Source: Bifidobacterium longum subsp. longum JCM 1217
GTDB taxonomy: Bacteria > Actinomycetota > Actinomycetes > Actinomycetales > Bifidobacteriaceae
Reading direction: 5' to 3'
Assembly: GCF_000196555.1 (NCBI RefSeq)
Contig: NC_015067.1
Span: forward strand, 810,001-842,000
Length of the DNA stretch: 32,000 nt
Under the pieces are notes generated by a model. The model had not been told where the DNA came from, ran no database searches, and saw only the letters and a list, made by a program, of their open reading frames with translations. The translations under genes were made by a program, and so were the position numbers. Shown here in pieces: positions 3,431 to 23,095 of the stretch; within the stretch, counting starts at the first letter, position 1; every line of letters starts with the position of its first letter.

Positions 3431-3436
3431 CGATTG

Positions 3437-3509
3437 TGGAGCTAGGGGGATTCGAACCCCCGACCCTCTCCATGCCATGGAGATGCGCTACCAGCTGCGC
3501 TATAGCCCC
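3437..3509 (-). tRNA. tRNA-Ala (anticodon GGC)
   Basis: A 73-nt cloverleaf was folded by hand: GGGGCTA acceptor with the G3:U70 Ala identity pair, anticodon loop ATGGCAT, and T-arm GGGGG-TTCGAAT-CCCCC. CCA is not encoded. Confidence 0.93.
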
Positions 3510-3598
3510 GAGTGAAGCTATCCGATTCATGGGAGTCGCAAGACCCGCCATGAACCAGCGGAGAAACCACCATATCGCCTGACTTGATGGCTTCGTCG

Positions 3599-3671
3599 TG
3601 GAGCTAGGGGGATTCGAACCCCCGACCCTCTCCATGCCATGGAGATGCGCTACCAGCTGCGCTATAGCCCC
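3599..3671 (-). tRNA. tRNA-Ala (anticodon GGC), second identical copy
   Basis: The sequence is identical to 3437..3509 and lies 162 bp upstream in the same orientation. Confidence 0.93.
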
Positions 3672-4739: not shown

Positions 4740-5153
4740 TTACGCGGTGGTGACGGCAGCATCTTCCGCATGCTCCGCCGTTTCCGGGTGTGCGAGTTCA
4801 AGATCGATGGCCGGGCAGTCGCGCCAGAGTCGTTCGAGCCCGTAGAATTCGCGCGATTCCTCGTGCATGACATGAACCACGAAATCACCGTAGTCAAGCA
4901 GCACCCACTGGCCCTCGGTCAGGCCCTCGCGAGAGCGCGGCTGACGGCCGGAGCACTTAAGGAACAGGTCCTTTTCGATTTCCTCGGCCACGGCCAGTAC
5001 CTGACGCTCGTTGGAGGCGCCGGCGATCATCATGATGTCGGTGATGCCGAGCAGGTCGGCTACGTCGAAGGCCACGATGTCGGTGGCCTTGATACGGTCT
5101 GCGGCCTCGGCGGCCACGCGGACGGCGTTGATGGAATCCTGAAGTGCGGGCAT
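4740..5153 (-). CDS. rsfS: ribosome silencing factor RsfS (iojap family)
   Basis: This 137-aa ORF contains the typical RsfS core DIVAFDV...ITDIMMIAGASNERQVLAVAEEIE...DYGDFVVHVM. Confidence 0.9.
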   Translation of the reverse strand: MPALQDSINAVRVAAEAADRIKATDIVAFDVADLLGITDIMMIAGASNERQVLAVAEEIEKDLFLKCSGRQPRSREGLTEGQWVLLDYGDFVVHVMHEESREFYGLERLWRDCPAIDLELAHPETAEHAEDAAVTTA

Positions 5154-5156
5154 GGT

Positions 5157-6539
5157 TCAGCGCTCCCAGGCGGGCTTCCAGCCCTCGACGTTGTGCTGCG
5201 TGTTCTCGGAGTAGACCATCGTGTCGCTCGGCACGGCGTGGCGCACCACGGAGCCGGCGCCGGTGGTCACGTTGTCGCCGACCTCGACCGGGGCCACGAA
5301 CAGGTTGCCGGCGCCCACATGGCAGCCGGAGCCGATGGTGGTGCGATTCTTGTGCACACCGTCATAGTTGGCGGTGATGGTGCCGCCGCCGATGTTGGTG
5401 TGGTCGCCGAGCTGGGCGTCGCCCACGTAGCTCAGGTGCGGCACCTTGGTGCCGTTGCCGATGTGCGCCTTCTTCATTTCGACGAACGCGCCGGCCTTGG
5501 CATCCTTGCCGAACTCGTTGCCCGGGCGCAGGTAGGTCCACGGGCCGATGTTCGTGCGTGCGCCGATGTGCGATTCCTGCACGCGGGAACGCTCGACCAC
5601 GGCACCTTCGTCCACGGTTGCGTCAATGAGGGTGGTGTACGGGCCGACGATGGCGTCCTCGCCGACCACCGTGTGGCCTTGCAGGAAGGAACCGGGCAGG
5701 ATGGTGGCGTCGCGGCCGATCTGGACATCGTCCTCGATCCAAGTGGTTTCCGGGTCAAGAATGGTCACGCCATCGCGCATCCAGCGCTCGCAGACGCGGC
5801 GGTTGTAGGTCTTGGACAGCGCGGCCAGCTGCACGCGGTCGTTCACGCCTTCGACGGTGAGCGGATCCGGAGCAGCGAACGCGCCGACTTTGCCAGCGGC
5901 CTTGGCGGTTTCCAGCGCGTCGGTCAGATAGAACTCACCCTGCGCGTTGTTCGACTTCAGTCCGGCGATTGCCTCGGTAAGCACGGAAGCCTCGAACACG
6001 TAGACTGAGGTGTTCACTTCCTGCACGGCGAGTTCGCTGCGGTTGGCGTCTTTCTGCTCGACGATGCGCAGCACGTTGCCTTCGCGATCGCGGATGATGC
6101 GGCCGTAGCCGGTCGGGTCATCGAGGATGGTGGTGAGCACGGTGGCGCCGTTGCCGGAGGCGGTGTGGAATTCGACCAGACGGTGCAGCGTCTCGCTGTC
6201 GAGCAGCGGCATGTCGGAGGCGGCGATCAGCACCGGGCCATCGACCTTGCCAGCCTCGGTGAGCTGCGCCATTGCGCACTGCACGGCGCGGCCGGTACCG
6301 GGAATGTCGTCCTGGTTCACGATGGTGACCTGCTCGTCATAGGAGCGGGCGGCTTCGGCGACGCGCTCGGCCTGGAAGTGCACGACCACGGCCAGCGTGT
6401 CGGGATTCAGGGCGGCCACCGAATCCATGACCCTGTTCAGGAAGGTCTTGCCTGCAAAAGTATGCAGCACCTTCGGCTTGTTGGAACGCATGCGGGTACC
6501 CTCGCCGGCTGCGAGGACGATGGCTGCGGATAATGCCAT
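5157..6539 (-). CDS. glmU: bifunctional UDP-N-acetylglucosamine pyrophosphorylase / glucosamine-1-phosphate N-acetyltransferase
   Basis: The ORF is 460 aa from ATG 6539. It has the N-terminal LAAGEGTRM nucleotidyltransferase motif and a C-terminal left-handed beta-helix of hexapeptide repeats (IGxxxxIGP... pattern). Confidence 0.93.
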   Translation of the reverse strand: MALSAAIVLAAGEGTRMRSNKPKVLHTFAGKTFLNRVMDSVAALNPDTLAVVVHFQAERVAEAARSYDEQVTIVNQDDIPGTGRAVQCAMAQLTEAGKVDGPVLIAASDMPLLDSETLHRLVEFHTASGNGATVLTTILDDPTGYGRIIRDREGNVLRIVEQKDANRSELAVQEVNTSVYVFEASVLTEAIAGLKSNNAQGEFYLTDALETAKAAGKVGAFAAPDPLTVEGVNDRVQLAALSKTYNRRVCERWMRDGVTILDPETTWIEDDVQIGRDATILPGSFLQGHTVVGEDAIVGPYTTLIDATVDEGAVVERSRVQESHIGARTNIGPWTYLRPGNEFGKDAKAGAFVEMKKAHIGNGTKVPHLSYVGDAQLGDHTNIGGGTITANYDGVHKNRTTIGSGCHVGAGNLFVAPVEVGDNVTTGAGSVVRHAVPSDTMVYSENTQHNVEGWKPAWER

Positions 6540-6627: not shown

Positions 6628-6633
6628 CAGCCG

Positions 6634-6704
6634 TTCCCCCACCTGGACTCGAACCAAGACAAAGGGTTCCAAAGACCCGTGTGCTGCCATTACACCATGG
6701 GGGA
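6634..6704 (-). tRNA. tRNA-Gln (anticodon TTG)
   Basis: A 71-nt cloverleaf was folded by hand: acceptor TCCCCCA/TGGGGGA, anticodon loop CTTTGGA, and T-loop TTCGAGT. There is one C-U mismatch at 27:43. Confidence 0.85.
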
Positions 6705-9978: not shown

Positions 9979-11472
9979 TTACCGGTGATACAGACTCACC
10001 CGTTCGTACTTCGGTTCGCAGCACACGTTGATGCCGAGTTTGCGATACAGCGCCTCGTCCGTGGATGAGATGATAACGGAGAAGAAGGCGTCGCAGCCCC
10101 GCAACTGTTTGAGCCCGTCGATGACGCGAGCGGCCACAGGACTGGTGGCGCTGGTGATTGACAATGCAATCAGCGTCTCATCCGAGTGCAAGCGTCGGTT
10201 CACGCTGTTGAGATGTTCGGTTTTCAGCCGACAGATGGGTTCGATGGCGGCATCGTCGATTACCGGAATGGTTTCGTCAACACCGGTGACGGCCTTGAGC
10301 GCGTGCATCAGCAGCGCGCTGGCCGCGCCCAACAGGTCGCCGGTTTTGCCGGTGACCACATGGCCATCGGGCAGCACCATGGCGCCAGCCGGGGCACCGG
10401 TGGCGGCCTCCTTCTCAAGAGCCACGGCGCGGGCGGGAGAAAGATCGGGGGTCACGCCGGCCCGGTTCATGATGGAGCGCAGCCGCTCCACCTGTTCCTC
10501 GCCAGTGCCGGTGCGCTTCAAGTGCACGGCGGCGGCGAAGTAGCGGCGCACGATTTCCAGACGCGCGGCATCGCGGCAGGCATCGTCGTCCACAATGGCG
10601 TATCCGGCCATGTTGACGCCCATATCGGTGGGGCTCTGATAGGGGCTTTCGCCCATGATGCGCTCCATCATGGCCTTGAGCACGGGGAATGCTTCGACGT
10701 CGCGGTTGTAGTTGACGGTGGTCTCGCCGTACGCCTCCAGATGGAAGGGGTCGATGATATTGGCATCGTCGAGGTCGACGGTGGCAGCCTCGTACGCGAT
10801 GTTCACGGGATGGTTCAGCGGAAGATTCCAGATGGGGAACGTCTCGTATTTGGCATAGCCGGCGTCGATGCCGCGCTGGTGCTCGTGGTACAGCTGAGAC
10901 AGGCACGTGGCGAGTTTGCCGGAGCCCGGGCCGGGCGCGGTGACCACGACGAGCGGTCGGCTGGTCTCGATGTACTCGTTCCTGCCGTAGCCGTCATCGG
11001 ACACGATGCGTTCGATGTCGTGCGGGTATCCGGCGATCGGGTAGTGCAGGCGGCAGGTGACGCCGAGTTGCTCGAGGCGGTGGCGGTAGGCGTCGGCGGC
11101 GGGCTGATTGGCGTATTGGGTGAGCACTACGGAGCCGACGAGGAAGCCGCGGGAACGGAACACGTCGATGAGTCGCAGCACGTCCTCGTCGTAGGGGATA
11201 CCGAGGTCGCCGCGGGTCTTGCCTTTTTCGATATGGTTGGCGTTGATGGCGATGACGATTTCCACATCGTCCACCAGACTTTCCAACATGCGGAACTTGG
11301 TGTCCGGCTCAAAGCCGGGCAGCACGCGCGAGGCGTGGTAGTCGTCGAAGAGCTTGCCTCCGAATTCCAGATAGAGTTTGCCGCCGAATTGCGCGATGCG
11401 CTTTCTGATGTTGGCGGCTTGCAGCTCGATGTATTTTTCGTTGTCGAATCCCTGGCGCATAGAGGTCGGCAT
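9979..11472 (-). CDS. UPF0371 / DUF1846 family protein (function unknown)
   Basis: The N-terminal signature GFDNEKYIELQAANIRKRI...GGKLYLEFGGKLFDDYHASRVLPGF matches the family as I recall it. The start is uncertain: ATG 11472 or ATG 11460. The track start at 11574 is probably an extension. Confidence 0.75.
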   Translation of the reverse strand: MPTSMRQGFDNEKYIELQAANIRKRIAQFGGKLYLEFGGKLFDDYHASRVLPGFEPDTKFRMLESLVDDVEIVIAINANHIEKGKTRGDLGIPYDEDVLRLIDVFRSRGFLVGSVVLTQYANQPAADAYRHRLEQLGVTCRLHYPIAGYPHDIERIVSDDGYGRNEYIETSRPLVVVTAPGPGSGKLATCLSQLYHEHQRGIDAGYAKYETFPIWNLPLNHPVNIAYEAATVDLDDANIIDPFHLEAYGETTVNYNRDVEAFPVLKAMMERIMGESPYQSPTDMGVNMAGYAIVDDDACRDAARLEIVRRYFAAAVHLKRTGTGEEQVERLRSIMNRAGVTPDLSPARAVALEKEAATGAPAGAMVLPDGHVVTGKTGDLLGAASALLMHALKAVTGVDETIPVIDDAAIEPICRLKTEHLNSVNRRLHSDETLIALSITSATSPVAARVIDGLKQLRGCDAFFSVIISSTDEALYRKLGINVCCEPKYERVSLYHR

Positions 11473-11706
11473 CCCTTTCCGAACGACGTCGTAAACGGAA
11501 AAATTATACCGGACGTCGTCGGCAACAAAAAATGGGATTCCCCGATGGGGAATCCCATTCGTCATAGAGAGCAATTACTCCCGAGGAATGTTGAACAGGG
11601 GTTTGCATGGCTCCCAAAAACGCGCTGGTTGAAACGTTGCCGACGACGCGTGCGCTCGAAGAGTATGCACGGGTGGCTTTGCGGTGATTTCCCAGACCGT
11701 TCGTTG

Positions 11707-12090
11707 CTAGGCGAGATATTTCTTTTTCCAGGCCTTCTTTCGGGCGTAAGCGTTTTCTGTCATGTCGGAGTAGTCGTAATCAACTTTGAACTTGCCGTTG
11801 GAATGGAGAATAAGCGTCATCGATCCCCATCTCTTTTCGGGCTTAAGCGCGGCCCTTTCAGGTTCAATGAACTTGTTGATAGCCATAAAGTTTTTCATCA
11901 AGGATGCCCTCGAAACGCCTTTTTGGTCAAAGCATTTAACGAAGTCGTCTTTTCCGCTGCCAGCAACGTAATACTCAATAGAGAACGCACCCTCGGCGTA
12001 CTCGGCGTAAAACACGACCTTGCTCCAGTCTTCGGGGAGGGTTTCCTCAAGAATTGAAGCTATCCCTTGTAGCATCTTCTTTTCACTCAT
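11707..12090 (-). CDS. DUF600 / YezG-EsaG-like immunity (antitoxin) protein
   Basis: This 127-aa ORF carries family hallmarks recognised by eye: LPEDWSKVVFYAEY...FSIEYYV near the N-terminus, GKFKVDYDY, and a C-terminal WKKKYL. Its start overlaps the upstream toxin stop (TAATG), and AAGGA lies 8 nt upstream. Confidence 0.7.
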   Translation of the reverse strand: MSEKKMLQGIASILEETLPEDWSKVVFYAEYAEGAFSIEYYVAGSGKDDFVKCFDQKGVSRASLMKNFMAINKFIEPERAALKPEKRWGSMTLILHSNGKFKVDYDYSDMTENAYARKKAWKKKYLA

Positions 12091-13367
12091 TACATTTCCT
12101 TTGCAGTGTTAAGAAGAAACGTAACCGTCTCTTCGCCGTCAATAATGTCCGTGATAGCAAACGAGCTAGGCCTGAATGACCCGCCCTCATAAAGTGGCTC
12201 AACCTTGAAAAACACTTCAGCGCCATCAGCCAAAGCATCGGCGCATTTTTGCTCGATTGCTGCATAGGCTTTTTGGTTAACCTCGCCGCCCATGGCGACA
12301 ATATTCTCAAGGCCATTTGATCCATTGAATCGGTCGGCAATCAGATGGCCTCTTTGATCAAAAAGCTCTTCAAACCCTTTTCCGATTGACTGGATAGTGT
12401 CCTTGATGGTCAAACGACCTTCGTGGGTCTTTAGTTGTAAGAAGCCTTCGGCCGATTCGACCCTACCCATTGCATCGGTAACGTATTTATACCCATTGAT
12501 CTCATAGCTCATGTTCGGAACGAGGTCGTCGCCAACGCGGTAAAGTTGCCCGAGATCGTCGGTTGCACACTTCACGCCGTCGATCGCAAACTCGTTATTG
12601 GGAAGCAGTCGGTCGCCTTCGTAAATTGCCTTTCCGGCATCATCCAGAATTCGTGAGCTTGCGCCCGATTCTGCTGCCTTTGAGGCAAGAAAGTTATTTA
12701 GACCTCGTCCGGCAAGAAGCGTTGCTGCCGTAACAGTTCCCGCAACGACTTCTCCGACGATATCCTCCTGAGATATCTCACCGTCTTCAGCGCCGGCTTC
12801 CAAGCTCTTTCCCATTTCGTCAAGAACGAGTACAGACCCAGCAGCGAGTGCTGCAGGGGCAGAAGCGGTGACGGCTACGGCACCAAGCGCAACTTCAGTG
12901 GCGATTTCGCCTCCAGTTTCGACATAGTCTCCGATTTCCCGTATCTGCTCATCGGCTTCCATGAAGTCGCCCCAGGCGTTGGCTGCATCGTCAACAGCGT
13001 GTGTTTGCGCGGTTTTCACCGCTGCTTCTTCGTCTTCGGCCAGTAGTTCAATATTCGATTCAACACCGACATATGCGTTTTCTCCAACGTCGGCAACTCC
13101 AAGTACGAACCTGCCGCCAAGATAAGCTCCGTTCCTTGCGCCATCGCGGACAGTTTCGCCTGCAGCGTTGAGTGTTGGCTCGCATGCTTTCCAGGCGTCA
13201 TCTGCGGCTTCTTGAACTGTTGAAATGCTCGCGGTTAGGACATCGCCGGAAGAAATATCCCGCCATGCGGCATCTGCACAATCAGCAACGGTGCGTTGCG
13301 CCTCCTCAAAGGCCAATCTCGTTTCGGTCGTATCCGGCATTAATTGCTCTATATTTTCAAACGCCAT
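12090..13367 (-). CDS. polymorphic-toxin-like protein with a C-terminal Endonuclease_NS_2 (YeeF/EsaD-type) nuclease domain; the N-terminal ~280 aa are unassigned
   Basis: This is a 425-aa ORF. Residues ~285-420 read EINGYKYVTDAMGRV...DQRGHLIADRFNGSNGLENIV...N...VEPLYEGGSFRP...IIDGEE...F.N, matching the D-x-GHLI / N / RP layout of PF13930-type toxins. It is followed by the DUF600-type gene. No signal peptide is present. Confidence 0.7.
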   Translation of the reverse strand: MAFENIEQLMPDTTETRLAFEEAQRTVADCADAAWRDISSGDVLTASISTVQEAADDAWKACEPTLNAAGETVRDGARNGAYLGGRFVLGVADVGENAYVGVESNIELLAEDEEAAVKTAQTHAVDDAANAWGDFMEADEQIREIGDYVETGGEIATEVALGAVAVTASAPAALAAGSVLVLDEMGKSLEAGAEDGEISQEDIVGEVVAGTVTAATLLAGRGLNNFLASKAAESGASSRILDDAGKAIYEGDRLLPNNEFAIDGVKCATDDLGQLYRVGDDLVPNMSYEINGYKYVTDAMGRVESAEGFLQLKTHEGRLTIKDTIQSIGKGFEELFDQRGHLIADRFNGSNGLENIVAMGGEVNQKAYAAIEQKCADALADGAEVFFKVEPLYEGGSFRPSSFAITDIIDGEETVTFLLNTAKEM

Positions 13368-14102
13368 TTAGATCACCGGCCTTGTTTGAGATAAGACCGC
13401 TGATACTTCGGCGAGTGCTGAGGCCTTTTCCGTTGTCTCGATGCCGGTACCCCTCTTTCTCAGCTCGTTGAGATGAGCGTTAAGCATCGACTGAATGAAC
13501 AGGTATTGGATTGGTCCCCAGCTTTCGGGTGAGGAGTCATCTTCGAATTTCCAGCTTGAAAGCAGATGGGAGCAAAGCCTCTCTTTGAGGCTGTCGGCAG
13601 ATAAATCCCTGGCGTCGTCGAGGATGCGTCCAATATTGAAATACCTATAAGCACACCATTCAAACAGTGGCTTCCTCGAGGACAGAGGAGTCCTTGCCAT
13701 CTCAATCAAGCGTGCCTTCATGGAGTCAGGTATGTCCATCTTGTGCACACAGTCGCAGAAGTTGTATTCCCTTGGCTCATCGAGCTTGAACGGATTAAGC
13801 ACACAAGAGTTGAGATAGCGAAGCTCTTCAGAAGAAGCCTTGTCCTTCGCGCTGTGCTTGCTCTGTGTCGGCGAGTACTCTAGGCCGCGTTCATGCGGTT
13901 CGATGTGACAGAGGACAGGTTCGATCCATTCGTTCTGATATATTGCTGCAACGCCTCGCTGAAGCTTTGCAAGCTCTTGGATTTGGCTCTCGTTAAGATT
14001 TGCCGCCTTGCCGATAAGCATCCTGTCGCCTTCGTCAGGCAGTTTCCAGGATAAGTCGATGCGATGATTCTGCCTCAAGCCCAGCGGGTTGTTAAGGCGC
14101 GG
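13368..14102 (-). pseudogene. 5'-truncated gene tail, possibly the C-terminus of an FtsK/HerA-superfamily P-loop NTPase; truncated at an IS66-type terminal repeat
   Basis: The frame is open from 14102 but has no proper start (TTG at 14078, ATG at residue 20). The segment LIGKAANLNESQIQELAKLQRGVAAIYQNEWIEPVL resembles the post-Walker-B end of HerA/FtsK-like ATPases; this is a weak call made by eye. Its stop TAA abuts the toxin ATG. Confidence 0.35.
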
Positions 14103-14118
14103 TCATTTTGGCGCTTAC
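14098..14118 (-). repeat. solo IS66-type terminal inverted repeat (tip GTAAGCG at 14118, reading leftwards)
   Basis: CGCGGTCATTTTGGCGCTTAC is the reverse complement of 15500..15520 with one mismatch. IS66-family ends characteristically start with GTAAGCG. Confidence 0.7.
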
Positions 14119-14171
14119 ATCTCACTTTTGCAGACGTAGAATACGAGTATTGGAATCAAAGGAGGGTTCTC

Positions 14172-15496
14172 ATGCCAAATATCGGTAAGGACGACCATCC
14201 GAAGCTGTGGTCGCTTATTTTCGTGCTTATCATCGCGCTGACCTTCTGTTGCTTCGTCATGGGCCAAGGACTCAACAGTGGAACCAGCGTCTTCCTGGCA
14301 GGCCAAGGTTACGGTGCGAGCCTTGCCGGCGTACTTGCCTCGTCTTCTCCATTGCCGCCGCGTTAGCACGACTGTTCGTCGGCCCTGTTATCGACAACGG
14401 CAAGTGCTCACTCGTTATCATCGCCGGCATCGCTATCCTCATAGCAGGAACAGCACTGTCCGCTGTCGTTCAAGGCATCCCCCTCTTCACAATCAGCCGT
14501 TTGCTGCAAGGCGTGGGCTTTGGCGCAGCAACAACAGCAGCCTCGACCGCCGCAGCAAGCGTCTTACCGCAAGAACGGCTCGGCGAAGGCATTGGATACC
14601 ACGGCCTCGGACAGGCTATCGCCATGAGCATCGGCCCAGCCTTCGCACTTTACCTAGTAGGAACCGATCCCTCAACGAACCTCTATGTCGGCCTTGCCCT
14701 GGTTGGGTTTGCAGGGCTTGTAATCGCCCTCAACGCACGCTATGAAAGTAAATGGCAAACTCTGCCAAGCTCCAGCGCATACCGAATCAAAATGGAAACC
14801 CGGCTCGAACTCGACTCAAAAGACGGGCAGGCACCCAGCCCCACCACAGTAACTACATCCGAAACAATTAACAGTGAAAAGTATCCTGAAGGCGACCAGG
14901 TGTCCAAGAGAACCCTGCGTGACTCATTCAACATCTTCGAGCCGCGCGCATTGCCTGGCGCCATCCCACAGATGATCATGTGCCCCACTTTTGGCTTTGG
15001 CGTCTTCTTTGCTGGTCTGTACGGTACTACTCTCGGCTATACCCACGCCGGTCTCTTCTACACCATCAGCGCGGTAAGCATGATTATCATTCGCATGATT
15101 TCAAAGCATTTCATGGACACCGTACCTGCAATCAAAACAATGACCGGAGCCGTCGCGTGCGGCATCCTCTGCTGCCTTATGCTACTTGCCGCACCGTACG
15201 GGGAACCTGTCTTCCTGGCGTCCGGAATCTTCTATGGTCTCGCCACTGGCATAAGCCTGCCACTTAATCAAAGCGTAGCGGTAAAGAACACCCCGCCAGA
15301 GCGCTGGGGCGCCGCAAACGCCCTGTTCCTGCTCGCCAATGACATCGGCATTGGCTTCGCAAGCGTAATCTGGGGCGTTATCAATGACTCATTCGGGTTC
15401 CAGACAAGCATCGTCTGCGTCATTGTCTGCCTTATCGCAAGCTACGCATCCGCCTGGATCGTCTACCCCGCCCGCGACAAGCGGTGGAGGCATTAG
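14172..15496 (+). pseudogene. MFS transporter gene with a -1 frameshift near 14340-14343
   Basis: ATG 14172 is preceded by AAAGGAGGG. Frame 0 encodes MPNIGKDDHPKLWSLIFVLIIALTF...GASLAGVLAS. The reading continues in the next frame as VFSIAAALARLFVGPVIDNGK... through 12-TM-like sequence to TAG 15496. One G appears to be missing at TCG-GTC. Confidence 0.8.
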
Positions 15497-15499
15497 AGC

Positions 15500-16820
15500 G
15501 TAAGCGTCAAAATGACCGCGTAGCAGGAAACGTCCAGGACCATTCCGGCATACGGATGGAAAAGTCCTGGACGTTTCCATCTTTGCGTTGCGGTATGCCT
15601 TAGGCCGCTATGTCGCTACAGGCCCTCCTCGGCGTTGTTCGCCATCTCGTCGTCGAACGCATCGGGGTCGATGTTAATTATGAAGTCGTCAGGCATCTCT
15701 TTGGCCTTCTCGGCAGCGGCTGGGTCGAGCTTGCAGGACTCAGGCACCCTATCCGACCACGGCAGGAACGAGTCCACAACCTCATCGGTGAGCTCGCCGG
15801 CGTTGGGCATCTCGGTCAGCAGCCACTCGACGTAAAGCCTGGGATTGAGCCCGTTGGCCTTGGCCGTGGTGGTGACGCTGTATATCGCCGCAGACGCCCG
15901 CGCGCCGCGCGGCGCATCGCTGAAGAGCCAGTTCTTGCGCCCTACGACGAAGATTCGCTGGGCCTGCTCGGCGACGTTGTTCGAGAGCTCCAGGTGCCCC
16001 GTCTTCGAGCACGTTCATGACGTAGGGCCAGAACTCCACAGCGTACTGCAGCGCACGGTGCGGCGCCAGCTTCGGCGAGGCTAGGGGAAGCTGGGCCCGC
16101 GCCCATCCCCCGAAGTCCTCCATGAGCGGGCGGAGCTCCGCGTCGCGGGCGGCCTTCCTGCCGCCCGGCTCCATGTCGTCGAACTTGGAGTCGACCTTGA
16201 ACATGGCGTCGATCCTGCGCCTTGCCTCGAGCGCAACGCTGGCCGCAGACGCCGCCTTGGCGTCGCCGCCGGCGATCTTCACGATTTGGGCGAAGTAGCG
16301 GCGCACGTGGACGAGGCACGCCGTGTTGGCGATGTTGGGGTTGCCGAGATTGAAGTAGGGTTTGTAGCCGTTGGCGGTAAGCGTGCCGGACCAGCCCGCA
16401 AGAAACTCCTGGGCAACGCCCTTCCTGCGGGTCTCGTGGTATTCGAATACATACACGGGCACGTTGCAGCGCGCCGAGCAGAACAGCCACATCCTCGATT
16501 TCTTCTTCGCCTCGCGGTTCGGCTCTTTCAGGACCTGAACCGTGGTCTCATCGGCATGAATCCTGACATGCGACAGCAGCTCGACCTTCATTCTCTCATG
16601 GACCTTCGCCAGCCAGCGCGCGTGCACGTTCATCATCCAGTTCGCCATTCCTGGCGCGATATCGTCGCGCCGCACGCCTTGAGGTCTGTCTCTATGCGGT
16701 AGAGCGGCAGCGACATGACGTACTTGCCGTTGACGATCCAGGCAAGCAGCGACGGCGTCGCAAACGAGCCTGGTATCGGCGGCTCAGGCTGCGGTGCTCG
16801 CACGATGACGCCCTTGCGTT
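15500..16820 (-). mobile_element. IS66-family insertion sequence remnant (one end plus a damaged tnpC; the tnpA/tnpB side is missing)
   Basis: The terminal repeat GTAAGCGTCAAAATGACCGCG lies at 15500-15520. A subterminal 15-bp perfect inverted repeat lies at 15526-15540 / 15564-15578. The transposase reading frames run on the minus strand, and homology stops abruptly at ~16820. Confidence 0.85.
15616..16820 (-). pseudogene. IS66 family transposase (TnpC), N-terminally truncated with two frameshifts
   Basis: Three frames together read ...KGVIVRAPQPEPPIPGSFATPSLLAWIVNGKYVMSLPLYRIE...ISRQ / GMANWMMNVHARWL...ADETTVQVL...MWLF...LEDG / HLELSNNVAEQAQRIFVVGRKNWLFSD...YVEWLLTEMPNAGEL.... The frameshifts are at ~16650 (GG run) and ~15998 (GGGG run). 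Confidence 0.85.
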
Positions 16821-17151
16821 CCTATTGAGTTTCACTTGAGTTTCAGGGGCGTTTTTGGGGTGGTGGGACAAACTACTGGGACAGTTCACTCTCCGAAAAA
16901 TCCTTTACTCTTCGTCCGCTGCGTGTCGCCATGTCCGTGGTGTACGCGCTTTTAGAGTAAAAATGACTGAAACTGCAGGTCAAAAGGCATAAAGAGACCC
17001 CCTGAAAACGTTGTTTCCAGAGGGTCTCAATAGTTTTTACTCACCCAAAATCACAGGTGGCTTTACGCTTTTTCGTACGTGGCGGCACACTGCGACACTC
17101 TACGGACGGAATTTCGATTGCGCAAAATCCGCTCCAGTTTACTCCCACTCG
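16821..17151 (+). repeat. unit A of a diverged ~330-bp direct repeat, ending in a guaA-3'-end-like core (TTTACTCCCACTCG)
   Basis: By eye it aligns along its whole length with 18269..18621. Shared blocks include CCyrTTGAGTT..TTGAGTTTCA.GGG, GGGACAAA, AAATCCTT(T)ACTC, GAGTAAA..GCAGGT.AAA, a hairpin, GTTTTTACTCAC, TCGTACG and GCGG.ACAC..CG.CACTC. Confidence 0.75.
16994..17028 (-). terminator. terminator-like hairpin inside repeat unit A
   Basis: On the minus strand the sequence is GAGACCCTCTG-N13-CAGGGGGTCTC followed by TTTATGCCTTTTG. Its position is equivalent to the guaA-proximal hairpin in unit B. Confidence 0.5.
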
Positions 17152-17344
17152 CCAAAGTAAAACTGGTTCTAAACAATACTGTTTAGGGGATTTGACTCTT
17201 AGTTGCTCAATTTGATACCAATTATCCAACTTATACGGCGTTGTCGGACTCCTGTTATCAAAAGATTATCAAGCCCAATGTTATCAGCAGAAAAGCAATG
17301 GTTTGGATCATCTGTATTATACCACAAGCAGAGTGCTATTTCAA

Positions 17345-17740
17345 TCAAATAAGGGACTGCTTCAACTGTAGAATCCGTTTTTCAATCTCTCGAATGATCT
17401 CGACAAAGACTTGATCTTCGCTTCCGGTCGGATCTTCTAATCCCCAGTTATCGTCAAATGCTCTACCAATGAAAGGACAGCCCACATTGCACCCCATGGA
17501 GATTGCAATATCAGGGGCAGGAATATCCGAGATCAGTTTGGAATACTGGGTTTTCTCCATGTCAATCCCGTACAGTTCTTTCATAATGCGGACAGCATCC
17601 TGATTGATTTGCGGTTTTGTTTCCGTTCCTGCGGAATAGCTTTCAAACACATCGGAAGCCAAGTGCTTTCCCAAGGCCTCGGCAATCTGACTGCGGCAGG
17701 AATTATGGACGCAGATAAATGCCACCTTTTTCTTACTCAT
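17345..17740 (-). CDS. arsC: arsenate reductase, thioredoxin-coupled LMW-PTPase type
   Basis: This 131-aa ORF has the CVHNSCRS (CX5R) P-loop at residues 10-17 and the Cys pair in GCNVGCP (pI258-type C82/C89 arrangement). The region has low-GC, Firmicute-like composition. Confidence 0.9.
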   Translation of the reverse strand: MSKKKVAFICVHNSCRSQIAEALGKHLASDVFESYSAGTETKPQINQDAVRIMKELYGIDMEKTQYSKLISDIPAPDIAISMGCNVGCPFIGRAFDDNWGLEDPTGSEDQVFVEIIREIEKRILQLKQSLI

Positions 17741-17760
17741 ATTTGAACCAGTCTTTCGTT

Positions 17761-18268
17761 TTATTTGCGTTTTTTTACAAGGAACAGCATCACGGGAACT
17801 TCTGTCAGCACACCCACAGTCGTTGCCAGTGCCGCAGGGGAAGTCGTTCCAAACAAGGCGATTGCAACAGCAACAGCCAGTTCAAAGAAGTTGGAAGCAC
17901 AAATCATTCCGGCGGGAGCAGCAATCTTGTAGGGCAGCTTCAAAACCCGGCAAGCGATATACGCAATCGCAAAAATCAGGAAGGTCTGTAAAATCAGCGG
18001 TACCGCAATCAAAACAATGTGCAGAGGTTTTTCCAGAATGGTATTGCCTTGGAACGAGAAAATCATCACCAGCGTCAGCAATAAGCCAATGGTAGTTACA
18101 CTGTCAAACATATGGATGAAAGTCTCCTCAAAGTACACTGCCCCTTCCGCTTGATGACAGCCGAACGGGTCAGCATACCGCCAGCCAGAGGAAACACCAC
18201 AAACAGTACCACAGAGAGAATCAGGGTATCCCACGGAACGGGAACATTGGAACGCCCAGCAAAAAATG
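17761..18268 (-). pseudogene. acr3: ACR3-family arsenite efflux permease, C-terminal half only, with a frameshift in a G4 run (~18141-18144)
   Basis: One frame reads [42 protein letters not shown]. The next frame reads [24 protein letters not shown]...[17 protein letters not shown]...[11 protein letters not shown]. About the first half of the gene is absent, and homology ends at the edge of repeat unit B. Confidence 0.85.
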
Positions 18269-18609
18269 CCCGTTGAGTTCGATTTGAGTTTCACGGGCCC
18301 CGAAACGGCCCCGTTTCGCCCTCGGGGACAAAAACCGCGCGTCAACTCACTTGGGATAAATCCTTACTCCCATTCCCTCGAATACCTCCCCGTGCCTTGT
18401 TGTCTTGAAACACGGGGAGTAAATGGCGAAATCGCAGGTGAAAGGGAGTAAAACGGCAAAGAAAAAGCCTCCGTTCCAACGAGGGAACGGAGGCTAGGAA
18501 ATCGTTTTTACTCACTGCCGTCGCTGGCGGTTTTGCCATGACTCTCGTACGAAACGAAACTCAGCGGTACACCACGGCACTCAAAAGAGCAGGTCAAAGC
18601 CCTATCGGC

Positions 18610-18621
<12 letters not shown>
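18269..18621 (+). repeat. unit B of the ~330-bp direct repeat, ending in the genuine guaA stop region (TTACTCCCATTCG)
   Basis: See unit A. This unit also contains an internal perfect copy of the 12-nt guaA end (TTACTCCCATTC) at 18364-18375, matching 18610-18621. Confidence 0.75.
18466..18495 (-). terminator. intrinsic terminator ~115 nt downstream of guaA
   Basis: On the minus strand the sequence is AGCCTCCGTTCC-CTCGTT-GGAACGGAGGCT followed by TTTTTCTTTGCC. Confidence 0.75.
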
Positions 18622-20172
<1,551 letters not shown>

Positions 20173-20617
20173 TGATATTCCCCTAACGTTCATTGGAATT
20201 TTACGTGGGCTGAACACCCCTGATTATCACTGGTCAAGGCGACAAGGCCGACACGCAGAGACTATGTGCGCAAATCGAACAAACTACATGCCTGTAGACG
20301 GACAACACGCCGATTTCGAACATGGGAAATCGAACGTGCGCTGTTCTAGCCAAATGCTGGATTTCCGCATGCTTCCGCCGTTTTGAAAAAGTATGTTGAA
20401 AAAACTAATGTTGACAAACGGTCAGTCGAACCGCACAAATACTGAAATATCCGCAACAATTTCGAACACACCCGCAAGAAATCGTTCAAAAGTCGCGTTG
20501 TCCTCGTACCATGACGATTGATTGGGAACGGAAAACCTTGGCACCGCAAGGGTCAGGGACCGTGACCGAACAGAAATAATCAATCGCACGATCACGTGCA
20601 GGAGTACAGGAGTACAC

Positions 20618-23095
20618 ATGACGAGTCCTGTTATTGGCACCCCTTGGAAGAAGCTCAACGCTCCGGTTTCCGAGGAAGCCCTCGAAGGCGTTGACAAGTA
20701 CTGGCGCGTTGCCAACTACCTTTCCATCGGCCAGATTTATCTGCGTTCCAACCCGCTGATGAAGGAGCCCTTCACCCGCGAAGATGTGAAGCACCGTCTG
20801 GTGGGCCACTGGGGCACTACCCCTGGCCTGAACTTCCTCATCGGCCACATCAACCGTTTCATTGCTGACCACGGCCAGAACACCGTGATCATCATGGGCC
20901 CGGGCCACGGTGGCCCGGCCGGTACCTCCCAGTCCTACCTGGACGGCACCTACACCGAGACCTTCCCGAAGATCACCAAGGACGAAGCTGGTCTGCAGAA
21001 GTTCTTCCGTCAGTTCTCTTACCCGGGCGGCATTCCGTCCCACTTCGCTCCGGAGACCCCGGGCTCCATCCACGAGGGTGGTGAGCTGGGTTACGCTCTG
21101 TCCCACGCTTACGGCGCCATCATGGACAACCCGAGCCTGTTTGTCCCGGCCATCGTCGGCGACGGCGAGGCTGAGACCGGCCCGCTGGCTACCGGCTGGC
21201 AGTCCAACAAGCTCGTGAACCCGCGCACCGACGGTATCGTGCTGCCGATCCTGCACCTCAACGGCTACAAGATCGCCAACCCGACCATCCTGTCCCGCAT
21301 CTCCGACGAAGAGCTCCACGAGTTCTTCCACGGCATGGGTTACGAGCCCTACGAGTTCGTCGCTGGCTTCGATGATGAGGACCACATGTCCATCCACCGT
21401 CGCTTCGCCGAGCTGTGGGAGACCATCTGGGACGAGATCTGCGACATCAAGGCCACCGCTCAGACCGACAACGTGCACCGTCCGTTCTACCCGATGCTGA
21501 TCTTCCGCACCCCGAAGGGCTGGACCTGCCCGAAGTACATCGACGGCAAGAAGACCGAGGGCTCCTGGCGTTCCCACCAGGTGCCGCTGGCTTCCGCCCG
21601 CGACACCGAGGCCCACTTCGAGGTTCTCAAGAACTGGCTCGAGTCCTACAAGCCGGAAGAGCTGTTCGACGCCAACGGTGCTGTCAAGGACGACGTCCTT
21701 GCCTTCATGCCGAAGGGCGAGCTGCGTATCGGTGCCAACCCGAACGCCAACGGTGGTGTGATCCGCAACGACCTGAAGCTGCCGAACCTCGAGGACTACG
21801 AGGTCAAGGAAGTGGCTGAGTACGGCCACGGCTGGGGCCAGCTCGAGGCCACCCGTACCCTGGGTGCCTACACTCGCGACATCATCAAGAACAACCCGCG
21901 CGACTTCCGCATCTTCGGACCGGATGAGACCGCTTCCAACCGTCTGCAGGCTTCCTACGAAGTCACCAACAAGCAGTGGGATGCCGGCTACATCTCCGAC
22001 GAGGTCGACGAGCACATGCACGTCTCCGGCCAGGTCGTTGAGCAGCTGTCCGAGCACCAGATGGAAGGCTTCCTCGAGGCCTACCTGCTGACCGGTCGTC
22101 ACGGCATCTGGAGCTCCTACGAGTCCTTCGTCCACGTGATCGACTCCATGCTGAACCAGCACGCCAAGTGGCTTGAGGCTACCGTCCGCGAGATTCCGTG
22201 GCGCAAGCCGATCGCCTCCATGAACCTGCTGGTCTCCTCCCATGTTTGGCGTCAGGACCACAACGGCTTCTCCCACCAGGATCCGGGTGTCACCTCCGTC
22301 CTGCTGAACAAGTGCTTCCACAACGACCACGTCATCGGCATCTACTTCGCCACCGATGCGAACATGCTGCTGGCCATCGCCGAGAAGTGCTACAAGTCCA
22401 CCAACAAGATCAACGCCATCATCGCTGGTAAGCAGCCTGCTGCCACCTGGCTGACCCTGGACGAGGCTCGTGCCGAGCTCGAGAAGGGTGCCGCCGCTTG
22501 GGATTGGGCTTCCACCGCCAAGAACAACGATGAGGCCGAGGTCGTGCTTGCCGCCGCCGGCGATGTCCCGACTCAGGAGATCATGGCTGCTTCCGACAAG
22601 CTGAAGGAACTGGGCGTCAAGTTCAAGGTTGTGAACGTTGCCGACCTGCTCTCCCTGCAGTCCGCCAAGGAGAACGACGAGGCTCTGACCGACGAGGAGT
22701 TCGCCGACATCTTCACCGCCGACAAGCCGGTGCTGTTCGCGTACCACTCCTACGCTCACGACGTGCGTGGCCTGATCTACGACCGTCCGAACCACGACAA
22801 CTTCAACGTCCACGGCTACGAGGAGGAGGGCTCCACCACCACCCCGTACGACATGGTTCGTGTCAACCGCATCGACCGCTACGAGCTGACCGCTGAGGCT
22901 CTGCGCATGATCGACGCCGACAAGTACGCCGACAAGATCGACGAGCTCGAGAAGTTCCGTGATGAGGCCTTCCAGTTCGCCGTCGACAACGGCTACGACC
23001 ACCCGGACTACACCGACTGGGTGTACTCCGGCGTGAACACCGACAAGAAGGGTGCCGTCACCGCTACCGCCGCTACCGCTGGCGACAACGAGTGA
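20618..23095 (+). CDS. xfp: xylulose-5-phosphate / fructose-6-phosphate phosphoketolase
   Basis: The ORF is 825 aa from ATG 20618, with GGAG repeats upstream. The sequence [13 protein letters not shown]...[15 protein letters not shown]...[10 protein letters not shown]...[15 protein letters not shown] is the classic bifidobacterial Xfp sequence. Confidence 0.96.

Follow-up and report, generated by a model that had tools for sequence, protein, structure and literature searches.

Remnants beside guaA in Bifidobacterium longum and their probable descent from guaA-targeting integrative mobilizable elements

Why does the sequence at the end of guaA, the GMP synthase gene, occur again beside the gene in Bifidobacterium longum subsp. 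longum JCM 1217? We analysed 32,000 nt of its genome (NC_015067.1, positions 810,001 to 842,000); this stretch is called the window, and positions are given in its own numbering. A preliminary description of the window had pointed to two diverged direct repeats of about 330 bp, units A and B, and had read them as traces of site-specific elements inserted in tandem at the guaA 3' end. Our results support the view that the array is tandem, lacks an integrase, and resembles a cis-mobilizable element (CIME). We conclude, with high confidence, that the units are guaA-proximal, integrase-side attachment arms and that they come from two distinct elements belonging to a single family of integrative mobilizable elements (IMEs).

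Two homologous units and three copies of the guaA end

Units A (16821-17152) and B (18269-18622) are homologous and collinear. In a global alignment 215 of 310 aligned columns are identical (69%), and the score of 87 compares with 6.1 ± 3.0 in 300 shuffles (z = 26.6) and with a maximum of 18 for other stretches of the window. Similarity at background level is thus excluded. Each half is also significant separately (left ~130 bp, 71%, z = 9.7; right ~210 bp, 69%, z = 15.2). The pair shows only 49% identity in a nine-sequence alignment of arms (alignment A2), where the gaps are placed differently. The repeats therefore stand as first described, coordinates included.

Both units terminate in TTACTCCCAYTCG, which reads as the guaA stop region on the opposite strand; the match is exact at 17139-17151 and 18610-18622. 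The latter copy is the true end of guaA; the former has no guaA-like sequence behind it. The units also begin alike, with 11-bp repeats at their left edges, where TTGAGTTTCA occurs at 16825, 16836 and 18284 and nowhere else in the 32 kb. Unit A stops just after ...GAAACTCAAGTGAAACTCAATAGG and unit B after ...GAAACTCAAATCGAACTCAACGGGC, which is one homologous point within at most 8 nt. There each unit truncates an unrelated gene, an IS66 transposase gene for unit A and acr3 for unit B. All of this agrees with the preliminary description. Its count of guaA ends was correct for the first two copies (J1 and J2 in Table 1), and it missed a third, TTACTCCC at 11575-11582 (J3).

This third copy closes the inserted DNA. 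In B. ramosum, 76 bp, including a terminator hairpin, separate guaA from the DUF1846 gene, so that this species has an empty site. Compared with that spacer, the native guaA terminator and spacer of B. longum lie beside the third, partial core GGGAGTAA, and the guaA strand before the native terminator reads ...CCTCGGGAGTAA followed by TTGC, a shorter guaA end. The 76-bp spacer and the displaced terminator together indicate that about 7 kb (11583-18609) is an insert between guaA and its original terminator. Core copies split the insert into an inner and an outer segment, and the order is guaA, core, arm B, truncated acr3, arsC, X1, core, arm A, truncated IS66 gene, major facilitator superfamily (MFS) transporter, toxin-immunity genes, X2, core and native terminator, where X1 and X2 denote the distal ends of the two segments. 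The junctions read CGAATGGGAGTAA into unit B at J1, CGAGTGGGAGTAA into unit A at J2 and CTCGGGAGTAA into native DNA at J3. Thus the insertion lies exactly at the guaA 3' end and is marked by three direct repeats of the gene end, with an empty counterpart in B. ramosum. The GC (guanine plus cytosine) content falls to 43-56% across about 11.5-18.5 kb of an otherwise high-GC window. The exact 520-aa GuaA protein is found in many complete B. longum genomes, and almost every sampled genome of the species has the array.

Intact relatives and the anatomy of the arm

The identity of the units is settled by intact relatives, which carry a tyrosine recombinase gene beside the same guaA end and align with the whole of the units. 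Their layout is guaA, a non-coding arm of 500-620 bp, a helix-turn-helix (HTH) repressor gene, an excisionase-like (Xis-like) open reading frame (ORF), a tyrosine integrase gene, a NikA-like gene and cargo. The repressor (137 aa, HTH_3/HTH_31) is encoded on the opposite, minus strand. The Xis-like ORF (67-71 aa) matches the ICEBs1 excisionase model at 7e-13, below the cut-off of that model, and the integrase (356-359 aa) has Arm-DNA-bind_4, Phage_int_SAM_3 and Phage_integrase domains; its best match in the PDB reaches only 1e-6, to integrase 3nkh. The NikA-like gene is present in all intact relatives, and two of them (L199 and L212) also encode ParA, ParB and a PF03432 relaxase.

This layout was found beside guaA in Collinsella-like contigs, which we reached through the genomic contexts of a Collinsella-type GuaA (P0028), and in Gleimia europaea, Olsenella and Trueperella pyogenes. 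One Collinsella-like contig (L196) has a complete 7.9-kb element between GAGTGGGAATA(G) repeats, and the empty-site sequence resumes past the second repeat. G. europaea CP126966 (L205) has a complete 10-kb element at guaA, likewise between repeats of the GAGTGGGA(A/G)TA class. Olsenella sp. oral taxon 809 (L206) has the arm, HTH gene, Xis-like ORF and integrase gene beside guaA, and T. pyogenes CP033904.1 (L214) has these and NikA, with an integrase 98% identical to that of the Collinsella-like L195 type. By source names, integrase homologues come from Collinsella, Adlercreutzia, Ellagibacter, Raoultibacter, Olsenella, Gleimia and Trueperella. The preliminary description had suggested a search for intact elements in Bifidobacterium and Clostridia; such elements exist, and their hosts are Coriobacteriia and Actinomycetales, not Clostridia.

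From the core to the distal edge, unit A is 94.8% identical to the Olsenella L206 arm, and unit B is 95.2%, 85.9% and 87.0% identical to L138, L199 and L205, respectively (alignment A2). Arms of the L195 type match unit A at 65% identity. The L199 and L205 arms lead on into the HTH repressor, Xis-like ORF and integrase genes. Both units are homologous to arms of integrase-bearing members. The guaA genes of the relatives' hosts are only about 50-75% identical to B. longum guaA. Since the arms are 86-95% identical, they must have spread horizontally and are not an inherited flank.

Several features of the arm suggest how it may work. The family's tyrosine integrase would recombine at the last ~12 nt of guaA (GAGTGGGAGTAA). 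The core overlaps the E-W-E-stop codons of guaA and rebuilds them, so that integration leaves the gene whole. Every arm type has a hairpin with a T-run behind it about 110-150 nt past the guaA stop; the stems differ yet still pair, with compensatory changes at six of the nine pairs. Because integration separates guaA from its own terminator, the arm would bring a new one, and we infer that the arm hairpin replaces the terminator that was displaced.

A core-like motif, GGGAGTAAA, recurs in several copies and in both orientations within the arms. The type-C arm (L203), which has its own core-like copies (GGGAATAA), contains GGAATAA eight times and GGAGTAA never, and type-B arms contain GGAGTAA six to eight times and GGAATAA never. 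Thus the motif varies together with the core, which suggests that a single protein surface recognizes both. Farther out, about 320 bp from the core, tandem GAAACTCAA repeats are present in all nine arms, single-base variants aside. In the 21-kb loci of complete elements the exact 9-mer (GAAACTCAA/TTGAGTTTC) occurs only in the two arms, and the distal copies are inverted and tandem. This arm-only distribution, together with the Arm-DNA-bind_4 domain of the integrase, makes the GAAACTCAA repeats putative arm-type sites for the N-terminal arm-binding domain of the integrase.

Both B. longum units end at most 8 nt from the outermost arm-type site, and intact arms run 170-280 bp past this cut point before the repressor gene begins. 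The preliminary description had taken the left edge for a recombinogenic end. It is indeed a point shared by the two units, and it marks the outer limit of the tandem arm-type sites; it is not the natural end of an arm. Unit B of L138, a 1.5-kb metagenome contig, goes beyond the B. longum edge into more TTTACTCCCC-rich sequence.

Origin and spread of the array

Based on these results, we propose that integration by such an integrase built the array, whether the host at the time was B. longum or a donor. An older, longer tandem array would then have undergone internal deletions that left chimeras, with arm B fused to the ars fragment and arm A fused to the island of IS66, MFS and toxin genes, each island ending in its own core. 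Beyond the tandem repeats, the rest of the arm and the repressor, excisionase-like, integrase and mobilization genes have been lost. Because X1 and X2 are without the family's arm-type sites, each remnant is a chimera in which a family arm meets internal sequence of another island downstream.

The shared cut calls for an explanation of its own. Six independent internal truncations of family arms were observed, at arm positions 151, 192, 198 and 222 and, in B. longum, at the homologous positions 325/355. Chance is an unlikely reason for two cuts at most 8 nt apart just outside the arm-type sites. If selection had kept a working half-site, any endpoint farther out would have served. On inspection, no convincing core-like sequence, microhomology or insertion sequence (IS) end was seen at the shared edge. 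One metagenome contig (L151, 9299-11741) has a 2443-bp insertion with an 8-bp target duplication, AAAAAATG, at the junction of truncated acr3 and unit B (window 18261-18268). The IS sits 1-8 bp from the unit B edge, which hints at a local insertion hotspot.

A number of observations weigh against this reading. X1 and X2 have the core, have no GAAACTCAA sites and were seen only at B. longum loci, and neither remnant appears to be a simple attL-attR pair of a single element. The preliminary description had spoken of attL/attR-like remnants; of these, only the guaA-proximal arms belong to the family. As it had also stated, no integrase is left: a tblastn search of the 32-kb window gave no match to the family's integrase, Xis-like ORF, HTH repressor or NikA. 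The window thus holds neither a tyrosine integrase, excisionase or repressor of the array's own nor a mobilization module (oriT, relaxase or accessory protein) such as the relatives have, and integration in B. longum itself is therefore only a proposal. No intact member was found beside a full-length Bifidobacterium guaA. The binding roles suggested for GAAACTCAA and GGGAGTAAA rest on position, conservation and covariation.

Strain differences at the locus bear on the same question. In B. longum CP062940.1 (L083), which has an identical GuaA, guaA is joined directly to unit A; exactly 17151-18609 (1459 bp) is absent, and the alignments overlap by 12 nt of core at the junction. Thus, beside the empty site of B. 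ramosum, there are B. longum strains that lack precisely the inner element, which answers the call of the preliminary description for a check of this kind. Metagenome contigs L111 and L128 lack the same 1459 bp. In all three, the last ~60 nt of guaA (window 18610-18670; L083 11500-11563) carry nine synonymous differences. The remaining ~1500 nt are identical in L083 and have one or two differences in L111, and guaA of L128 is only 87-90% identical to the window over nt 1201-1400. The guaA tail is thus a recombination mosaic linked to the type of the adjoining arm. The simplest account of the polymorphism is allelic replacement by homologous recombination from a donor that never had the inner segment. 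Excision by an integrase fits less well. Mosaic tails of this kind show that homologous recombination, beside integrase action, moved blocks between strains.

Three other contigs (L147, L146 and L138) have a guaA that is 50-89% identical to that of B. longum, switches abruptly to 98-100% and is followed by unit B. The switch lies at conserved motifs, at nt ~1200 (FPGPGLG) and nt ~870, and the 5' part of the L147 gene is Firmicute-like. These genes reflect either replacement of the 3' end together with the arm across species, even across phyla, or chimeric metagenome assembly.

It is possible, then, that guaA-anchored homologous recombination, more than integrase action in B. longum, was the main route by which the array entered this species and is the one by which it passes between strains and species, the remnants having already decayed at import. 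The contigs that lack the inner remnant and have a foreign guaA tail favour this account, as do the three that switch to B. longum identity, and no integrase was found in about 20 B. longum genome loci. However, this account covers spread and not origin, since three cores and arms 86-95% like those of intact elements need site-specific integration somewhere. The mosaic contigs are also short metagenome assemblies that could be chimeric at conserved k-mers. We regard it as a serious contender, a little less probable than its opposite.

Far less survives of the idea that the unit is a native conserved region downstream of guaA, either a 3' untranslated region with a terminator or a small RNA, that was duplicated locally in B. 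longum. It is true that the guaA terminator lies in the unit, and that two loci (L114 and L175) have a 220-bp version between guaA and ORFs that look by eye like a two-component system, with no mobile gene in view. But the unit is absent from B. ramosum and four other bifidobacterial loci, and two Collinsella-like contigs of the same species as L196 (L197 and L201) have an empty guaA site without it. Its nearest relatives in other genera lie beside an integrase at 95% and 86-87% identity, compared with 69% between A and B, and the units are far better conserved across classes than guaA. The empty sites and the cross-genus identities refute this idea, to which we give almost no credence; the mobile genes of the intact relatives speak against it as well. 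A reading of the units as RNA genes was dropped because an Rfam scan of 11000-21000 at E<=1 gave no match. Some contigs have only the core-proximal 220 bp of type B beside ORFs resembling a response regulator and a histidine kinase (C-terminal sequences, read by eye), with Collinsella-type guaA or foreign cargo on the other side. We abandoned the view that the Collinsella-like 220-bp copy is a native guaA flank in light of the empty-site alleles, the intact elements and the cognate type-B distal arm that adjoins it (L105 compared with L205).

Likewise, a small non-autonomous transposable element (a miniature inverted-repeat element or an IS end) that favours guaA-end-like targets is most improbable, because inverted pairs of motif copies inside the unit, a sharp distal edge against truncated genes and the IS within 8 bp of unit B in L151 are set against units that have no terminal inverted repeats and no target duplication at the distal edge, whose full-length relatives run unbroken into a repressor-xis-int module, and which in more than 200 loci never occur away from a guaA-type core, no copy with a target-site duplication at an unrelated site having been seen. 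A dif/Xer-type reading (integrative mobile element exploiting Xer, IMEX) was dropped by eye; the core is not dif-like, and the relatives encode their own integrase.

Most of the copies that a pattern scan found in metagenome contigs were from B. longum (55 of type A and 54 of type B); diverged type-B copies made up the rest. Pfam models on the flanks of the diverged type-B contigs identified cargo (Abi_2, LytTR, DUF2992, AraC and AAA_14/DUF4143) and no recombinase. Among the matches listed in a scan of genome contigs with GuaA, most were from non-bifidobacterial Actinomycetota, and the units were in none of L001-L006. A pattern scan of viral contigs gave one match, which was judged to be due to chance: the contig is unrelated and taken up by a 2811-aa ORF, the match is downstream of this ORF, and nothing beyond the two pattern blocks is similar.

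Known guaA elements and the contents of the remnants

Integration at guaA is well documented. The 3' ends of guaA genes are targets of Tn5801 and its relatives in S. aureus Mu50 and other Firmicutes, which have 11-bp repeats and an integrase gene adjoining guaA (PMC4844618). Streptococcal ICEs (integrative and conjugative elements) and IMEs use the same site (PMC4701971, PMC5357655), as the preliminary description had noted. The likeness to B. longum is in the target site and the repeat length alone: these elements have 11-bp imperfect direct repeats of the exact guaA end and an integrase gene beside guaA, whereas their hosts are Firmicutes and their conjugation modules are of the Tn916 type.

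By host and target, the closest named relative is ATE-1, an IME of the actinobacterium Trueperella (Arcanobacterium) pyogenes that has a tyrosine integrase, carries tet(W) and targets guaA; we compared it through its description in a review (PMC5704250). T. pyogenes CP033904.1 does carry the integrase family described here at guaA. In contrast, ATE-1 has a MobV relaxase and tet(W) (PMC5704250), whereas the relatives here have a PF03432 relaxase (L199 and L212) and other cargo, and the B. longum copies are remnants without the core genes of an element.

The array also recalls the CIME of the ICESt1/ICESt3 model. An accretion route has been described in which an element integrates and decays to a CIME, after which another integrates at the att site containing the end of the gene (PMC5704250). 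Like a CIME, each B. longum remnant is without integration and transfer genes, keeps att-type repeats and lies in tandem at the 3' end of a housekeeping gene, in an array that would have grown by successive integrations into the att site holding the gene end. However, a CIME keeps attL and attR of one element, whereas the B. longum remnants keep only the guaA-proximal arm and their distal ends are foreign. The guaA-proximal arms retain the core, core-like motifs and tandem arm-type sites; X1 and X2 retain only the core. Mobilization of the remnants in trans is thus doubtful on sequence grounds. The B. longum copies are remnants of guaA-3'-end IMEs, not members, and because their distal arms are not cognate they fit the CIME idea loosely.

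A more speculative idea is that incoming ATE-1-like elements, some of which carry aminoglycoside, ABC-F and erm-type cargo, can still dock or recombine at the trimmed arms, and that integrated elements export the guaA tail by transfer like that of Hfr (high-frequency recombination) strains and homology-anchored recombination. The trimmed arms do look like a minimal complete half-site, from the core to the arm sites, and other bifidobacteria, as well as one Firmicute-like contig, have divergent guaA genes with blocks of guaA 3' end plus arm. We consider this idea unlikely. If true, it would make a housekeeping gene mosaic across phyla.

The array is the ordinary outcome of a known process, seen here in an important species of the gut. 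B. longum is a probiotic species and a dominant one in the infant gut; its guaA end is an intact target for an element family that circulates among gut, oral and veterinary Actinomycetota (Collinsella-like, Olsenella, Gleimia and Trueperella), with antibiotic-resistance or phage-defence cargo in some of its members. The remnants show that B. longum received such elements, or islands that they had built, on at least two occasions, and they mark where to look for new arrivals. The comparison also gives a sequence-level picture of the arm, with its core, covarying core-like motifs, tandem arm-type sites and replacement terminator; we found no such description for B. longum or for ATE-1-like elements in the literature searched.

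The features of the locus are listed in Table 1. On the far side of guaA lies xfp (20522-23095, + strand), and beyond the insert lies the DUF1846 gene (9979-11574, - strand).

Table 1. Features of the guaA locus, in window coordinates
Feature	Position	Strand	Basis
guaA (GMP synthase), target gene	18610-20172	-	Pfam GATase and GMP_synt_C; E-W-E-stop codons overlap the core
Core copy J1, TTACTCCCATTCG, guaA/unit B junction	18610-18622	+	Same sequence class as the 11-12-bp direct repeat GAGTGGGA(A/G)TA(G) of the complete L196 element
Unit B, first ~350 bp of a guaA-proximal arm, Collinsella/Gleimia type, cut just past the arm-type sites	18269-18609	-	Identity to L138, L199 and L205
Rho-independent terminator for guaA inside unit B	18466-18495	-	Terminator scan; hairpin kept in all arm types
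Two core-like motifs in unit B, TTTACTCCCC and TTTACTCCCT, inverted relative to the core	18414-18452	-	
Internal core copy in unit B, TTACTCCCATTCC	18364-18376	+	One mismatch to TTACTCCCAYTCG; homologous copy in L199 and L205
Candidate arm-type sites of unit B, tandem 11-bp repeats TTGAGTTCGAT/TTGAGTTTCAC (guaA strand: GAAACTCAA)	18273-18293	+	
acr3 (arsenite efflux) remnant, 5'-truncated and frameshifted, touching the unit B edge	17761-18268	-	TIGR00832 (NCBIfam) positions 198-325 of 327; blastn matches to ACR3 genes
arsC, arsenate reductase of the low-molecular-weight phosphatase type, inner-remnant cargo	17345-17740	-	Pfam LMWPc; NCBIfam arsenate reductase models, all under cut-off
X1, low-GC distal end of the inner remnant	17152-17344	-	No GAAACTCAA sites, so not the cognate arm of the guaA element family
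Core copy J2, TTACTCCCACTCG, guaA-end look-alike with no guaA behind it	17139-17151	+	Exact motif match
Unit A, first ~330 bp of a guaA-proximal arm, Olsenella type, cut just past the arm-type sites	16821-17138	-	Identity to the L206 arm
Terminator hairpin of unit A	16994-17028	-	Same relative position as in unit B; stem sequence differs
Tandem 11-bp repeats TTGAGTTTCAC/TTGAGTTTCAG, candidate arm-type sites of unit A	16825-16845	+	Sequence repeats; nine-arm alignment
IS66-family transposase remnant, 5'-truncated and frameshifted, touching the unit A edge	15782-16820	-	Pfam DDE_Tnp_IS66
MFS transporter, outer-remnant cargo	14207-15496	+	Pfam
orf236 (236 aa), outer-remnant cargo	13368-14078	-	No family match
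Toxin (425 aa) with C-terminal DNA/RNA non-specific endonuclease domain, outer-remnant cargo	12090-13367	-	Pfam
YezG-like immunity protein, overlapping the toxin gene, outer-remnant cargo	11707-12090	-	Pfam
X2, distal end of the outer remnant	11583-11706	-	Core present, GAAACTCAA sites absent
Core copy J3, TTACTCCC, junction with native DNA	11575-11582	+	B. ramosum comparison
Native guaA terminator, now displaced, with the spacer upstream of the DUF1846 gene	11527-11574	-	Comparison with the 76-bp spacer of B. ramosum

The two truncated genes can be followed to the unit edges. Past a frameshift, the ACR3 frame reaches the edge of unit B (...VPVPWDTL..., read by eye), and 16633-16821 on the minus strand matches positions 2-40 of the IS66 DDE domain. 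With blastn against plasmids, the ars fragment gave just 65-80% matches to arsC and ACR3 genes of Firmicutes and others and no donor element, and an exact look-up of ArsC returned solely B. longum contexts.

With 98% identity, the MFS region (window 14099-15594) matches a segment (4904-6485) of a guaA island in the Collinsella-like contig L173. In L173 a stretch of about 90 bp (window 15504-15594) flanks the gene on both sides, and in the window this stretch contains a 30-nt inverted repeat (15517-15587). The MFS region is possibly a small mobile cassette. In other B. longum strains (L081-L090, L185-L194), IS21-family and other IS have inserted repeatedly into the IS66 remnant, at varying positions and in varying orientations, and the island differs in length by several kb.

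Other guaA loci held further islands. The intact members L195, L200 and L208-L211, whose integrase is 98% identical to that of T. pyogenes, carry cargo with Pfam domains typical of resistance genes (Aminoglyc_resit and double ABC_tran, ABC-F-like), together with IS1595 and IS30, and L200 has an RrnaAD (erm-type) fragment. In Collinsella-like L202 (11654-16800), three guaA-end cores at 11654, 14772 and 16740 separate small integrase-less tandem modules that resemble those of B. longum, one with an SBF/ACR3-like gene, thioredoxin, ArsP and ArsR genes and another with an acetyltransferase and an HTH gene. Its proximal arm is of a different type (GCCCACATAGGCTTTAAC...), and it looks like a second element family on the same core. 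L005 (1290-1330), binned as Collinsella, encodes a GuaA 94% identical to that of B. longum. After GAATGGGAATAA comes AAAAACTCAAGAAATCAC..., which matches the arm-type repeat over 9 nt directly at the core, and next an island with an IS3-like transposase (frameshifted, two ORFs, by eye). This locus may be mis-binned or may represent another island type. Finally, the window contains two tandem tRNA-Ala(GGC) genes and a tRNA-Gln(TTG) gene, at 3436-3671 and 6633-6704, which are apparently unrelated to the array.

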